Part shown: positions 4,748 to 36,870 of the stretch, piece by piece
Position numbering within the stretch: position 1 is the stretch's first letter
Layout: every line of letters begins with the position of its first letter
From: an uncultured Chlamydiales bacterium
GTDB lineage: Bacteria > Chlamydiota > Chlamydiia > Chlamydiales > Rhabdochlamydiaceae
DNA: 64,000 nucleotides
Assembly: GCA_963700985.1 (NCBI GenBank)
Contig: OY969554.1
Location: forward strand, 1,248,001 to 1,312,000
Direction of reading: 5' to 3'
Notes under the pieces: generated by a model
Database searches by the model: none
What the model was told of the DNA's origin: nothing
What the model saw: only the letters and a program-made list of their open reading frames with translations
Position numbers and translations under genes: made by a program

Positions 4748-4754
4748 AGTTTTT

Positions 4755-5116
4755 GGGAAGGCAAAGCAATCGCCTCGGTTACCGAGGAGGAAAGTCCGGA
4801 CTTCGCAGGAGAAGATACCAGTGAAACACTGGGGGCTGTAAAGCCACGGAAAGTGTAACAGAAAATACACCGCTACCATTAAGGGCAACTTTAATGATAG
4901 ACAGGCTGAAAATGCTGGCTTTATGAGCCGGCCACACCTGCAGCGATGCAGGGTGCTGTAAACCCTATCTGAAGCAAGACGAATTATGGGCCACTACTGC
5001 TCTCCGCAGGGTCCAAGATACCAAGTCGCTTGAGGATCATGGCAACAGGATCCCTAGATGAATGATTGCTCGTTGCCCGCAAGGGCCACCGACAAAATCC
5101 GGCTTAACGCCTTCCC
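4755..5116 (+). ncRNA. rnpB: RNase P RNA (type A)
   Basis: GAGGAAAGTCCGGAC, GGAAAGTGTAACAGA and ACAAAATCCGGCTTA conserved blocks; P1 helix GGGAAGG/CCTTCCC. Confidence 0.97.
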
Positions 5117-5150
5117 TATTTTTAAAGAGCCATTAGCTCAAAAAGCTCAT

Positions 5151-32385: not shown

Positions 32386-33645
32386 ATGCGCTGTCAAAAA
32401 AATTATAACAAGGAAGCGTCTGTGAAAAACGCACATCGAATCTGCACAGGATTATCACTCATTGCAACCAGCCTTCTGCTAAGTGAAGAACTACATTGCA
32501 ATCCGACAATCTCCACCGAAATAGCTGTGGAAACAGCCGCGCAAGAAAACTTGCAAGTACCACTATTAGCAGAGGCTCCTGCCGATGTAAAACAAAGCAG
32601 GAAAGAAAACACGCATTGCGCTGTAAAAGCTAATGGATCAGATGCCTTTTGCAGAAGGTTCGAAGCACACCTAGATTTCCTATATTGGAAAGCCGATGAA
32701 GATGGATTAGAGTATGGCACGAAGATGGTCGCCCCTCCTTTGATCGGCGAATCTTCAACTGCAAAGACAAAATTGCTCGATCTTCATTTCGAATGGGACC
32801 CAGGCTTCCGCTTAGGTGCAGGATATACCTTTGATCAGCTCGACTGCTGGTCGCTTAATTTAAATTGGACACACATTCGTAATCACGCTCATGCAAAAGC
32901 ATCAGCTAAAGGCATTGAATCGCAAACCGGCAGTGTAGATACAATTATCTCTCCATGGGTAAATCTGCTTTTTGAATTGAGAGCTGGAGCCTCTAAAGCT
33001 GAAGCGCATTGGCATGTGGATTATAACACTCTGGATCTAGACTTTAGCCGAAGCGTGTCTCTAAGCAAAAAATTCAGCTTAAATCCCCACTTTGGTCTTC
33101 GAGGAGCCTGGATCGACCAAGATTATAAAGCTAAATATAAAAGTGTTTTCATTCTTGCGGAAAGTTCGCCTCATTTTACGAGAAATGTAACTTTTAAAGG
33201 CAAAAACGAGTTCAGCGGATTTGGATTAAGAGGCGGCACAGAGCTCCTCTGCCATTTGAGCCCCAACTGGCATATCTTCTCTCAATTTGCAGGGAATCTT
33301 TTGTACGGCAGATTTAGAGTGAACATGAAGAACCTGCATGATCAAGGGTTAGGAGAAGGAGATATCCCTCCTATGCCTCTCGACTTCAAAGCCTCCGAAC
33401 ATTTCTGGCGTGTGCGCCTCAGCTTCGAAGAAGCAATTGGACTGGGCTGGGATAGATCTTTCCGATGCGATAAGTATCGCTTAAGACTCCGCGCAGCATA
33501 CGAGCTCTCTCAGTGGCTTAACCAAAATGAACTCTTTTACACCTTCTACTTCCGTGGGCAAGATACAATTTCTAGCGTTCCCATCCGAAGCCAAGGCGAT
33601 TTAAGTTTTCATGGAATTCGTGCCGGGCTCCAATTCGACTTTTAA
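32386..33645 (+). CDS. Outer membrane porin-like protein (Lpg1974/MOMP-like)
   Basis: FLYWKADEDGLEY, WDPGFRLGAGY and GDLSFHG...FDF motifs, ending in Phe. Confidence 0.8.
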   Translation: MRCQKNYNKEASVKNAHRICTGLSLIATSLLLSEELHCNPTISTEIAVETAAQENLQVPLLAEAPADVKQSRKENTHCAVKANGSDAFCRRFEAHLDFLYWKADEDGLEYGTKMVAPPLIGESSTAKTKLLDLHFEWDPGFRLGAGYTFDQLDCWSLNLNWTHIRNHAHAKASAKGIESQTGSVDTIISPWVNLLFELRAGASKAEAHWHVDYNTLDLDFSRSVSLSKKFSLNPHFGLRGAWIDQDYKAKYKSVFILAESSPHFTRNVTFKGKNEFSGFGLRGGTELLCHLSPNWHIFSQFAGNLLYGRFRVNMKNLHDQGLGEGDIPPMPLDFKASEHFWRVRLSFEEAIGLGWDRSFRCDKYRLRLRAAYELSQWLNQNELFYTFYFRGQDTISSVPIRSQGDLSFHGIRAGLQFDF

Positions 33646-33666: not shown

Positions 33667-34104
33667 CTAGCTCACCAATAGGGGTCTTCTACTTGGATTG
33701 GCCGCATGCAAAAGCTCAGCGTATTTTTCAAGACTTGGCCTTGCATAGGCTCTTTCATAACGTGCATAGGCATTTGGAGATTTTGATTTTAGTCTCTTTG
33801 AAACTTCTCTAATAGTTGACCCGCCTCGTAAGCGTTGTCTTTTTAAGCCAAGAGCGAGCAAAAGTTTGTCTTCTGTTGCTCCCATCCCAATAACGCCATT
33901 TTCATAGAGATTAACCGCGAGTTGGAATCGCTTGCCGAGTAATTCTTCATATGAGTCTTTTAAAAGCTCCATCACAGCATCTTTAATCATCTCTAAGGCT
34001 TCTTTTCTAGTGCGTCCTTGGGTCATGACATCCAGAAAAGAAACTTCGATGAGCCACCCTGAACTATCAGGATCTTTCCAAACTCTGCCTTCTAACTCAA
34101 TCAT
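33667..34104 (-). CDS. HicB-like antitoxin with C-terminal HTH
   Basis: MTQGRTRKEALEMIKDAV (HicB-like) and TIREVSKRL...YARYE (HTH). Confidence 0.78.
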   Translation of the reverse strand: MIELEGRVWKDPDSSGWLIEVSFLDVMTQGRTRKEALEMIKDAVMELLKDSYEELLGKRFQLAVNLYENGVIGMGATEDKLLLALGLKRQRLRGGSTIREVSKRLKSKSPNAYARYERAYARPSLEKYAELLHAANPSRRPLLVS

Positions 34105-34181
34105 TGACGTATACGCTTAAGTGAACAAAGCTAAATTTTTAGCAGATATAAGAATTCCTCAGAACCACTATTCGAAAGTAA

Positions 34182-34838
34182 CTATAGCTTTGAAAAATGA
34201 GCAAGATCAGCAGGCATGTATTCCATGGGTCGAGATATCGAAACCAAACGAGAAGCATCTGTTACTAATTGAGGTAAGAGACAGCGTTCAAGATGTTCGA
34301 TGCGAATCTTAGTTTTATCCGAAGAAACCTGTATTAGTTCATGACTATGAAAGTAACGAGGAGGAGCCACAGTTGTGATCCGTTTTTCTGGAAAATGCCT
34401 TCGTACCATCTTAATGGCTGGCGCAAGATCAGAATCGTTCGAAATAACAAGAGCACGGTCGAATGCATCTTGATACGCTAGATCAAGAAGAAACAAAGCA
34501 ATATTGACATTCGTCTCTTTTTCTTCATGACCAACCCACTTATGATCACAAGATGGACATTTTCGATTCTTCTTTTTGAAGTGTCCGAGAATGGGCACTA
34601 CCCCTGTTAATTCTAAAGCACGGATATAAGCCTTTTTACATCTTTGTGTGGATTCGGCGACATGTTCAGCATATGCGGAAAAGTAAAACACTTGAGAAAG
34701 CTATTCAGTATGAGATTTGAGAAATACCTTTGAGAGAGCTCTTAAATCTGTCCATTTTAGTTCAGAACGACGAAGAGTCGATATTGCATGGTAAAGATTA
34801 AAACCATCAATGAAACAAACTACACGTTGTCGATCCAT
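34182..34838 (-). pseudogene. NYN (LabA/DUF88, PIN-like) RNase gene interrupted by one in-frame TAG at 34701-34703
   Basis: MDRQRVVCFIDGFNLYH...SHTE*LSQVFYFSAY...EEKETNVNIA...ISNDSDLAP, all in one frame from ATG 34838. Confidence 0.85.
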
Positions 34839-34849
34839 GAAGAACCTTT

Positions 34850-34912
34850 AAAAAACGTGCCACGAGCCGGAGCCCGTGGCTTTCGCATGGGGTAATCCAT
34901 GCGGGACGATAC
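34850..34912 (-). ncRNA. Putative two-hairpin small RNA/leader with terminator upstream of the NYN gene
   Basis: On the minus strand: CGCATGG-ATTACC-CCATGCG, AAA, GCCACGGGC-TCCG-GCTCGTGGC, then ACGTTTTTT. A promoter-like TTTACA..TACGAT lies upstream. Confidence 0.55.
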
Positions 34913-35009
34913 AACCATCGTAATAGATCGAAAGATTTCTTGTAAAATAGTTTTGAAAAGGCATTGATGCTACTTTCCTTAACATACTCCAGCCAGAAAG
35001 CGATTGCAC

Positions 35010-35342
35010 TTAAGTTAAGGGCTCTAAACCTTGAGCCATTGCAAAAGCAAAGATACCAATTAGAGAAAGAATAGTAGATAACTTCTGATCTAGGAGCTCT
35101 TCATGACTTTTCTGTCCCCAAGTTAGAATTTTTGATCCCAAGGCACCTAAAGTTGTCCCCCAGCAGATATATCCAGTATAACAGAGAAGTGTTACACAGA
35201 TTTTTGCAACCGGAAAAAAACTGTTAATTAAAAAAGATGTAACCAAAGCCAGCAGCACGATTCCCATACTACACGTCAACATTTTCAAATATGAATTTTT
35301 AACCTTTGTAGTGCCATTTTCACTCTCTAATGCAGTAGACAT
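35010..35342 (-). CDS. Small membrane protein
   Basis: GGAGG RBS; three hydrophobic segments. Confidence 0.65.
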   Translation of the reverse strand: MSTALESENGTTKVKNSYLKMLTCSMGIVLLALVTSFLINSFFPVAKICVTLLCYTGYICWGTTLGALGSKILTWGQKSHEELLDQKLSTILSLIGIFAFAMAQGLEPLT

Positions 35343-35458
35343 TGTAAAACCTCCAAAATTGCTAGTTGAATTTGAGATCAGCAGACTCGAATTTTATAAA
35401 ATGCACTATTAGGTTTCAAATCTTATAGCTCTAGTCATAGAGGAAAGCTGTTCAAAAA

Positions 35459-36514
35459 CTAATCCGAAGAATGAAGCTTTAGGGGCCACCCGTTGGCGGC
35501 TTTTTCTTTGGTTTTTTGGAGAGCTTCAGAAAGTTCTGCATCGATTGAGGTAAGCCGAAGCACATTTCCATCGTGAAGGATCCAAGGGTCAATTCCGCGA
35601 CAGCGGAATTTTATGAGAAGAGTGGCCTCTGATGGTTCCACCAAGCTGTAGTATTGAAGAGGATCTGCAAGCATGCCCATTCTGTTTTGAATTAATCGAT
35701 CTTTTGATCCGCGCAATTTGTTCCAAATGACTTCATCTGTGCCAAAGTGAAATTCATTCCAAGAGATTAGGCCAATTTTCAGCCCATGTAAAATCGCATC
35801 AGCAAGCCAGCGCGAGGTCACATAATTCTGGGCGCTCCCCCAACAATCTTCGGTCATAAACAGCGAAAAGCGCATCAATTTAGCGGCGAGATCTTTTCGA
35901 GTACTCAGCCACTTTCCCTCTACAAAAAACAGATCATTGAAAAACTCTTGTGCTTCTTCTCGAGTTAAAAAGTTCTGAAAAAAGGCGCCTTGAATATTGT
36001 AATCGATTCTATCCGCACACAGATTTGGAAGAGACTGTTCTAGCATGCTGAATTTATTCCGCTTTGGAAGAACTTGCTCTACGGAAAAACCGTGTTTATT
36101 CAAGATCTCTTCTATGCCCGAAACTGCTAAGTAGAATCTAAAAATTGTAGATTGGTAATCATCTTCTTGATACTCCTTCTCAAAAACCCAATCTCCTACA
36201 TGCGAAAAAGCCGTATGCGAAACGTCATGCAGAAGCCCTGCGATCTGCTCTTCAAGCGATGCCCCTTTTACTTTTAGAATCGCAAATACACCGAGCGAAT
36301 GATCAAAACGCGTATACTCTTCGTGGTGTGTTGTATAATAAGCCACGCCATACTGATGGATGGATTTTAGTCTTTGAACAGCTGGCGAATTAATCAATTC
36401 GATGAGCACTGGCTCTTCAACTTCAACCGCGCCATAAAAGGTCTCTACCCTTGCACCAAGCAGCTCGAGACTAAGACAAACAAAGAAAATTAATAATCGT
36501 GAAGAAAAAGTCAT
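35459..36514 (-). CDS. HD-domain phosphohydrolase with possible signal peptide
   Basis: RFDHSLGV, GLLHDVSHTAFSH and LCADRIDY motifs. Confidence 0.9.
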   Translation of the reverse strand: MTFSSRLLIFFVCLSLELLGARVETFYGAVEVEEPVLIELINSPAVQRLKSIHQYGVAYYTTHHEEYTRFDHSLGVFAILKVKGASLEEQIAGLLHDVSHTAFSHVGDWVFEKEYQEDDYQSTIFRFYLAVSGIEEILNKHGFSVEQVLPKRNKFSMLEQSLPNLCADRIDYNIQGAFFQNFLTREEAQEFFNDLFFVEGKWLSTRKDLAAKLMRFSLFMTEDCWGSAQNYVTSRWLADAILHGLKIGLISWNEFHFGTDEVIWNKLRGSKDRLIQNRMGMLADPLQYYSLVEPSEATLLIKFRCRGIDPWILHDGNVLRLTSIDAELSEALQKTKEKAANGWPLKLHSSD

Positions 36515-36516
36515 AT

Positions 36517-36870
36517 TTAGCTTTTTATGCTTTCGTAAACCCAAGCGAATATGCCCGAAGATAAGCGAACTTTGACTCTCCGATAATCTGCTACTTCATA
36601 CTTATCTGCCTCTTCTAGCTCTTTGAGAGAAACTTCAAACACCATCCCTTGAACTTGATCTTTCGGATTGCCTGAAAAGTGAATGATCGAGTGAACATCT
36701 TCTCCGCTCTTGGCAATCACATCTGGATCGGTAATTTGTAATTTCTCTAAGCGATAGCCTGGAAGATGATCTACCCTTCCGGTCAATTTTCGCCCAAAGG
36801 TCGCAATTTGAACTTTTTCGTATTGCAACGTTCCATAAGAGAACAGATTTTCTGCGTCTTCTTTTTTCAT
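36517..36870 (-). CDS. Gamma-glutamylcyclotransferase (AIG2-like) family protein
   Basis: LFSYGTLQ...ADKYEVADYRR. Confidence 0.88.
   Translation of the reverse strand: MKKEDAENLFSYGTLQYEKVQIATFGRKLTGRVDHLPGYRLEKLQITDPDVIAKSGEDVHSIIHFSGNPKDQVQGMVFEVSLKELEEADKYEVADYRRVKVRLSSGIFAWVYESIKS

Follow-up and report, generated by a model that had tools for sequence, protein, structure and literature searches.

In toxin–antitoxin (TA) systems of type III, the antitoxins are RNAs. In the ToxIN, CptIN and TenpIN families, they are organised as tandem repeat arrays that are cut by the toxin, and the toxins possess a ToxN/AbiQ-type fold. A locus with a comparable layout was analysed in a stretch of 64,000 nucleotides (nt; hereafter the window) from an uncultured Chlamydiales bacterium of the Rhabdochlamydiaceae (contig OY969554.1, positions 1,248,001 to 1,312,000). 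In this locus, a short RNA with two hairpins, P1 and P2, is encoded on the minus strand directly ahead of a ribonuclease gene that has an NYN domain and belongs to the HEC-09 family. The RNA and the NYN gene are a conserved, self-contained and mobile two-part module under one promoter. The module shares with ToxIN, CptIN and TenpIN the order of promoter, RNA, intrinsic terminator and endoribonuclease on one strand, the lack of a protein antitoxin, the mobility and the occurrence on plasmids. The fold of the putative toxin differs, being NYN here and ToxN/AbiQ-type there. An earlier note on this DNA had assigned the locus to the type III layout; this layout proved to belong to a conserved module, but neither tandem repeats nor a ToxN-type fold accompanied it.

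Two further systems may be regarded as precedents for the gene order found here and for the neutralisation of a protein by an RNA. In AvcID, a non-repetitive small RNA encoded beside the toxin gene inhibits the protein, and the labile RNA is lost upon transcription shut-off, by which the toxin is activated, according to the excerpts of the report used here (PMC10511110). This mechanism is alike to the one proposed below; AvcD, as described in those excerpts, is a deoxycytidylate deaminase and not a nuclease, and its RNA is unrelated, no Rfam family being matched by the motif studied here. In AbiF/RCd22, an RNase-like toxin of abortive infection has a structured non-coding RNA upstream of it, and action in cis and in trans coexists (excerpts of PMC12373285). 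The AbiF protein differs, being of the HEPN-related Abi_2/AbiD/F type in those excerpts, and it is accompanied by another RNA motif.

The protein family itself has already been listed. HEC-09 was presented as an NYN-domain candidate defence gene embedded in Hma (helicase-methylase-ATPase) systems, and its domain, with conserved aspartates, was likened to MARF1 in the portions of the preprint used here (Payne et al., bioRxiv 10.1101/2024.01.29.577857). The window gene belongs to the same protein family, and the likeness to MARF1 agrees with the fold search described below. HEC-09 is treated as a single-protein candidate in those portions, and the terms 'non-coding' and 'ncRNA' have no occurrence in the main text of the preprint (bioRxiv 10.1101/2024.01.29.577857), whereas an RNA and a protein form the module in the present analysis. 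The earlier note had called the system undescribed, which holds for the RNA, for which no description was found, but not for the protein.

A conserved two-hairpin RNA upstream of the NYN gene

The features of the window are listed in Table 1. The promoter-like site, both hairpins, the U6 tract and the gap before the NYN start codon were all present in the sequence as the earlier note had described them. The gap was an 11-nt spacer between the T6 run and the ATG at 34838, and it contained a weak AGG Shine–Dalgarno-like element. Seven of the nine P2 pairs were G–C and the T6 run followed, by which the hairpin qualifies as an intrinsic (Rho-independent) terminator. The folding energy of the 87-nt stretch was -35.8 kcal/mol, compared with -22.3 +/- 3.3 kcal/mol for shuffled sequences (z = -4.06), and none of the 200 shuffles equalled it. 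The description as a GC-rich RNA in AT-rich surroundings was accurate, with a G+C content of 58% against 31–47% in the adjoining 100-nt windows. The hairpin-2 sequence occurred once in the window, where 0 occurrences were expected by chance, and no tandem repeats were found between 34000 and 35400. The short CGT/ACG closing arms, which had also been claimed, were present in the window copy but not conserved; only 53.6% of cells were paired across the homologs, and RNAfold did not predict these arms.

Table 1. Positions of the module and of neighbouring genes in the window
Feature	Position	Strand	Basis or remark
Promoter-like site, sigma-70-like, TTTACA-18-TACGAT	34946..34917	-	9/12 match
-35 element TTTACA	34946-34941	-	followed by 18-nt spacer
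-10 element TACGAT	34922-34917	-	
RNA motif R1, 62 nt: 5' single-stranded UCCC, P1, short linker, P2, U-tract	34911..34850	-	
UCCC, 5' of P1	34906..34903	-	last C is the first P1 base; most conserved stretch of the motif
Hairpin P1, CGCAUGG - AUUACC - CCAUGCG, 7 bp, 6-nt loop	34903..34884	-	predicted fold
Hairpin P2, terminator stem, GCCACGGGC - UCCG - GCUCGUGGC, 9 bp with one G-U, then ACG	34880..34859	-	predicted fold and terminator scan
U6 (T6) tract of the terminator	34855..34850	-	sequence
NYN-domain ribonuclease gene, HEC-09 family, 218 codons, pseudogene	34838..34182	-	Pfam and PADLOC
Internal TAG, codon 46	34703-34701	-	Glu in the closest homologs
Asn codon, residue 110, EKETN motif	34511-34509	-	Asp (EKETD) in 22/22 aligned homologs and in 34/34 of a second alignment
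Protein of 145 amino acids with C-terminal HTH_3	33667-34104	-	directly downstream of the NYN pseudogene
Legionella_OMP-family outer membrane protein	32386-33645	+	
HD-domain protein	35459-36544	-	

Relatives of the module were collected in one protein-based scan of 185,579 species genomes, which gave 352 confirmed loci. The best 79 of these loci were retrieved and contained 80 NYN copies, and the linkage of the RNA was counted within these loci, which had been located through the NYN protein. A covariance model, R1, was built from a MAFFT alignment of 69 RNA instances and used to search 664 kb of sequence, made up of the window and all 79 loci. The testable copies numbered 80, comprising the window copy and the copies in the loci, minus that of L076, the contig of which ends 22 nt before the gene. 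An R1 match was located immediately upstream and in the same orientation in 79 of the 80 testable copies (the window and 78 of the 80 copies in the loci), and 10 of these matches were absent from the seed alignment. The match in the window scored 68.2 bits (E 2.7e-12, cmsearch) and was the sole one there. L022 carried two NYN genes with an RNA for each, and the NYN copy of L078 had no R1 match. The loci belonged to Chlamydiota/Verrucomicrobiota, to Alpha-, Beta-, Gamma-, Delta- and Zetaproteobacteria, and to Acidobacteriota, Gemmatimonadota, Spirochaetota, Binatia and Thermodesulfobacteriota. When the 140 nt 5' of each NYN gene were inspected, the same layout appeared nearly everywhere, namely a promoter, (A/G)UCCC, hairpin 1, a linker of 0–4 nt, hairpin 2 and a U-run. 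In the UCCC element, two C were invariant across the 69 sequences, and the T and the third C were conserved in at least 90%.

The structure scored for covariation comprised 20 pairs, that is, the 16 core pairs of P1 and P2, pair 9-38 and three pairs of the closing arms. Column shuffles, in which relatedness is ignored, and partners slid by 1–3 columns, in which relatedness is kept, served as controls. Changes on both sides were found in 18 of the 20 pairs and amounted to 181 cells of the 69-sequence alignment. The scored positions were paired in 85.7% of cells, whereas slid partners gave 32–45%, and the covariation score was 0.409 compared with 0.06–0.125 for the slid partners. None of the 500 column shuffles attained the observed covariation values, and the slid-partner control was as clear as the shuffle control. 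Both sides had changed in 9–15 of the 69 sequences for six of the seven P1 pairs, and in one sequence each for pairs 10-37 and 16-31. The halves of P2 were paired in 96.5% and 91.7% of cells, and eight of its nine pairs showed both-side changes. RNAalifold independently returned both hairpins, with 13 of its 14 pairs compensated, and the motif consisted of these two plain hairpins, without further junctions or internal loops. The loops were variable or plain UNCG-type tetraloops. Moreover, G–U pairs were frequent; of the 69 sequences, 26 had one at pair 50-64 and 20 had one at pair 41-70. Hence, the fold is that of an RNA from the NYN sense strand rather than that of DNA or of the opposite strand. 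A conserved and covarying two-hairpin motif upstream of NYN homologs, which had been proposed as a check on the window RNA, was thus borne out by the 79 of 80 copies and by the extensive compensatory change.

These results also bear on three other explanations, namely a plain terminator of the upstream gene with a chance hairpin, a DNA-level element (a repeat, a recombination site or a transposon end) and an N-terminal coding extension of NYN, which together were considered very improbable and are at odds with the data. Hairpin 2 and its T-run do form a textbook terminator. However, the upstream genes differ in almost every locus, whereas the RNA and the intervening promoter are conserved. The plentiful G–U pairs speak against a DNA-level element, as in DNA or on the opposite strand they would turn into A–C mismatches, and the element was unrepeated in the window. 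A coding extension is favoured by public gene calls, in which the NYN open reading frame (ORF) of 5 of the 22 aligned homologs (P0002, P0011, P0014, P0026 and P0120) runs through the RNA and begins with 'MRKPRAPARGTFF...'. However, the upstream ATG sits in an arm of P1 and changes with its pairing partner, and the frame in the window is out of phase with NYN. The NYN gene call of L080 (1482-2207) is extended through the RNA likewise, and gene calls of this kind, which now translate through the RNA, are corrected by the motif.

Known RNA families were ruled out for the motif, as Rfam 15 gave 0 matches at E<=10 around it in the window (34100-35100) and none overlapping it in 8 diverse loci (E<=1). 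In the whole window, only a bacterial RNase P RNA of class A (225 bits, 4754-5121, plus strand) exceeded its Rfam gathering score. In the open full-text literature, with subscription journals outside the search, no report was found that links NYN with an RNA partner or with an RNA motif. The two-hairpin RNA motif appears to be undescribed. Even when read cautiously, it is a structured RNA, so far undescribed, whose covariation is strong across many phyla, and it belongs in RNA family databases.

At E<=1, R1 gave 84 matches in the window and the 79 loci, 79 of which lay directly 5' of an NYN copy. The other five were second tandem copies in L007 and L010, an orphan copy in L033 and two weak matches (E 0.15 and 0.4). 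The whole unit of promoter, RNA and terminator was tandemly duplicated in L007 (3700-3990), and the second RNA copy of L010 (3823-3988) had no obvious promoter of its own. The orphan RNA of L033 (2367-2436) was nearly identical to the copy at 337-406, which precedes the NYN gene of that locus. It was located 2 kb downstream, past an ArgR gene, and 80–170 nt before a Bro-N ORF of 461 amino acids (aa).

The NYN family and the decayed window copy

The protein encoded in the window, translated with X at the TAG, matched Pfam NYN (PF01936) over residues 5-170; the score of 41 bits (E 3.4e-10) exceeded the curated cut-off of 24.2. The window gene matched the PADLOC model of HEC-09 (E 8.8e-52) across positions 2-201 of the 203 in that model, and an alphaproteobacterial homolog (1e-49) and an E. 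coli plasmid homolog (5e-49) also matched this model at full length. HEC-09 and NYN were the only PADLOC models matched by the window protein, and those of ToxN/AbiQ and CptN/TenpN were not matched. No matching model was found in NCBIfam, and a sequence search of the PDB returned only 2qip (E 0.038). The family was large; 1348 proteins at E<=1e-3 were obtained among 1525 candidates, many of which were 60–83% identical and intact at ~218 aa, and a profile search gave 990 clusters at 50% identity with E<=1e-30. One homolog, P0098, is named '6-hydroxy-3-succinoylpyridine 3-monooxygenase HspA' in one source, an annotation apparently transferred by similarity.

The fold search was carried out with an AlphaFold2 (AF2) model of the homolog P0001, which is 83% identical to the window protein; the pLDDT of this model was 90.9. 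The best PDB match in Foldseek was the LabA-like 2qip (1.2e-9), and the NYN domains of MARF1 (5yaa and 6fdl) followed at 3e-6 to 4e-5. The fold shared with these MARF1/LabA-like proteins (E 1.2e-9 to 4e-5) had target-normalised TM values of 0.66–0.75, and the acidic motifs IDGxN, EKETD and NDSD were shared as well. However, the identity was only 10–18%, and two features set the window family apart, namely a C-terminal extension and an inserted beta-hairpin that bears an invariant CxxC (C94 and C97). To our knowledge, no MARF1/LabA-like NYN protein with a cognate small RNA gene is known.

D11, D110, D135 and D137 were invariant in the family, and these residues presumably correspond to the catalytic residues of MARF1. 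The window copy has N at position 110 and its active-site set is incomplete. The inactivation that had been read from the internal TAG and from EKETN in place of EKETD was upheld by the homologs. Judged from its sequence, the window copy is a dead gene, an NYN member by descent and not a working enzyme, while its RNA is intact. Broken NYN ORFs were also present in L017, in the first copy of L022, in L036 and in L052, and the RNA was kept in all of them (43–74 bits). The reverse case, an intact gene without the RNA, was limited to L078 at most.

Transcription layout and possible roles of the RNA

A promoter in the homologs was scored as a sigma-70-like match of at least 8/12 with the -10 element ending 3–9 nt ahead of the start of the RNA model. 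Such a match was present at this fixed distance in 47 of the 81 instances, compared with 2–6 of 81 at three other offsets and 7.4% of the shuffles. In many of the instances scored as weak, a promoter could be seen, the -10 element of which was non-canonical. The U-tract was likewise common; in 69 of the 82 RNA instances, T made up 7 or more of the final 10 nt. The distance from the end of the model to the NYN start codon had a median of 10 nt and a range of -1 to 29. Hence, the ~10 nt between terminator and start codon leave no room for a promoter of NYN itself, and its expression needs read-through of the terminator. An RNA gene, an intrinsic terminator and a nuclease gene were aligned on the same strand under one promoter, which is the layout of the type III systems.

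We tentatively favour the interpretation as a type III-like module, whose small RNA, once terminated, would bind the NYN nuclease and hold it in check. Binding between RNA and protein, toxicity, neutralisation and a role in defence or addiction are presumed in this interpretation. Transcription would start a few nt ahead of the invariant UCCC. The majority of the transcripts would end at the terminator formed by P2 and the U-tract, which would free a two-hairpin RNA of ~60–70 nt, and a minority would read through into the nuclease ORF, the ribosome-binding site of which would begin a few nt past the U-tract. The RNA would be the cognate partner of the NYN protein and bind it, probably via the UCCC tail and the P1/P2 junction. 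The bound RNA would keep the nuclease inactive, both in trans and in cis as the 5' leader. A drop in RNA supply, such as that following phage-induced transcription shut-off or plasmid loss, would then free the nuclease and arrest the cell. This logic would be that of type III TA systems and of abortive infection.

That the single-stranded UCCC is invariant and P1 conserved implies that a specific factor recognises them. The NYN protein is the only module-encoded candidate for recognising both, because no other gene is conserved nearby. A restraining function of the RNA is suggested by the strong terminator, which would supply the short RNA in excess, by the RNA-only duplications and by the solitary insertion of the module at many sites. 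The carriage on tiny plasmids points in the same direction, as does the finding that the NYN gene has decayed repeatedly while its RNA was kept.

The same layout would also fit a purely cis-acting leader, and several further points weigh against a type III-like module. A single short two-hairpin unit is found here, whereas classical type III systems have tandem repeats; L007 and L010, with two copies, are the exceptions. The HEC-09 clone, which consisted of an inducible promoter and ~150 bp of native upstream DNA where possible, gave no protection versus any tested phage in what is the sole published assay, and toxicity is mentioned for HEC-03 and HEC-04 only, in the portions of the preprint used here (bioRxiv 10.1101/2024.01.29.577857). 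The orphan RNA of L033 precedes a Bro-N gene, so the role of the RNA may be untied from NYN. The asymmetry of decay is weak evidence; as the gene presents a target ~10 times the size of the RNA, few cases in which the RNA is lost first would be expected anyway. Furthermore, some of the broken ORFs derive from metagenome assemblies, and errors in these could account for them.

For a leader that acts only in cis, the terminator would keep the nuclease low, and NYN or a host factor would read UCCC and P1 in its own mRNA, for example by cleaving it, with no trans antitoxin and no addiction. Regnase-type NYN/PIN nucleases target stem-loops of their own mRNA. The RNA is always in cis, at about 0–30 nt from the start codon, and is a single unit without repeats. 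In the portions of the preprint used here, neither toxicity nor protection is reported for the HEC-09 clone with upstream DNA, which also suits such a leader. An alternative 4-bp pairing of the 5' CCCG with the CGGG of a P2 arm is possible in 56–58 of the 69 sequences and was considered as an antiterminator. However, it was uncompensated and at the level of shuffles, with 83.6% paired compared with 82.3%; the P2 arm was altered in 10–13 sequences, and the 5' CCC did not co-change. It was the sole candidate for the alternative pairing expected of a riboswitch or a transcription attenuator. P1 and P2 are separate stable hairpins without overlap, and no conserved antiterminator was visible in the alignment. 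A strong terminator would yield an excess of short RNA that would be purposeless for simple damping, and the tandem units of L007 place terminators in series, which would choke a cis-only system further. Moreover, cis and trans action coexist in the excerpts on AbiF/RCd22, so this alternative overlaps with a type III-like module. A leader confined to cis action was, on balance, judged the main alternative, somewhat less likely than the type III-like module.

The linkage and the covariation are equally the basis for regarding the RNA as a cofactor or substrate instead of an inhibitor; NYN might process it or carry it as a guide, a scaffold or a sensor, with the ribonucleoprotein as the active form. 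The invariant single-stranded UCCC could serve for pairing or for recognition in such a particle. However, only ~4-5 unpaired nt are conserved, which is too few for guide-like targeting, and the loops are variable or of the simple UNCG type. No RNA-guided NYN protein is known to us. This possibility was regarded as improbable.

With respect to HEC-09, the two-hairpin RNA could possibly be its missing second component. The two together would then be a new type III-like RNA-antitoxin family of wide phylogenetic range and an abortive-infection or plasmid-addiction device, including the copies on 3.5-kb enterobacterial plasmids; this proposal is put forward with reserve. If the RNA controls the nuclease, NYN would be a new toxin fold and the RNA a very small new architecture among RNA-antitoxin systems. 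HEC-09, which was unprotective when assayed, would become a two-part system that can be tested otherwise, and the main cargo of tiny natural E. coli plasmids would gain a function. If the type III-like interpretation is true, this would be the first RNA-antitoxin family with an NYN/MARF1-like toxin, and its RNA would be minimal and non-repetitive at ~60–70 nt.

Genomic context and plasmid carriers

The neighbourhood of the module was explored through BLAST clusters of all ORFs within 3 kb that reach 60 aa or more and through Pfam on the 146 nearest flanking ORFs, and no conserved neighbour gene was found in the 79 loci. The flanking ORFs were mostly unrelated housekeeping genes, including those for aminoacyl-tRNA synthetases, enolase, elongation factor P (EF-P), heme and murein enzymes and type III secretion. 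Few neighbours were of the mobile or defence type, namely integrases in L042 and L058, a DNA methylase in L053, and Bro-N, RhuM and DUF2442 proteins. The embedding in Hma and defence systems that is described for HEC-09 was not seen in the 79 loci, among which one had a DNA methylase as neighbour and two had integrases. Of the 79 loci, 9 (L017, L029, L045, L050, L051, L052, L071, L074 and L078) had a tRNA gene no farther than ~500 nt from the module. By a rough reckoning, this proximity is above expectation and suggests island-like insertion. Some genomes contained 2–3 divergent NYN copies. These copies, the spread of the loci over many phyla, the plasmid carriage and the nearby integrases and tRNA genes accord with a selfish or accessory element.

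Relatives of ~40% identity were found on ColE1-like plasmids of 3.5–4.2 kb in E. coli, Salmonella and Klebsiella (L080, NZ_AP023432.1; L081, NZ_CP101551.1). NYN is one of only 3–6 annotated genes on these small plasmids and is accompanied by a divergent gene for a helix–turn–helix (HTH) protein; one of the plasmids has three annotated genes, those for HTH, NYN and Rop. Among the complete genomes of E. coli, 12 of 5426 had a plasmid NYN, always on a small plasmid. The leader of the enterobacterial plasmids was longer and folded, with a strong terminator, into four hairpins (z = -7.3). R1 gave no match on the plasmid homologs (~41% protein identity) with default filters, as the enterobacterial leader is too diverged. 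On a plasmid of Methylobacterium nodulans, the order of UCCC, P1, P2 and U-tract was recognisable in place, with a weak R1 match when the filters were off (12.8 bits, E 0.45). Among the records listed, the enterobacterial leader was confined to 18 plasmid records, the accessions of which were largely those of the NYN-bearing small plasmids, and no orphan leader was evident among them. Phage records yielded just 3 weak protein matches. The enterobacterial plasmids of 3.5–4.2 kb offer a natural and tractable model for the module.

In the window, the neighbours of the module are a small membrane protein (a 110-aa ORF, upstream) and the 145-aa HTH protein. The Legionella_OMP-family protein and the HD-domain protein that flank the region agree, along with the taxonomy of the homologs, with an environmental member of the Chlamydiota. 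A gene 81% identical to the latter was found in L018 (3409-3843), directly upstream of the NYN module, and it was absent from the other 78 loci. The HTH gene may be a second small mobile gene that uses the same insertion spots. A HicB-like N-terminus considered for the 145-aa protein was dropped, and Pfam yielded HTH_3 and HTH_31 only. A 19-nt direct pair with 79% identity (34204-34222 and 35375-35393) spans most of the NYN module and the ORF of the 110-aa membrane protein, and it probably arose by chance.

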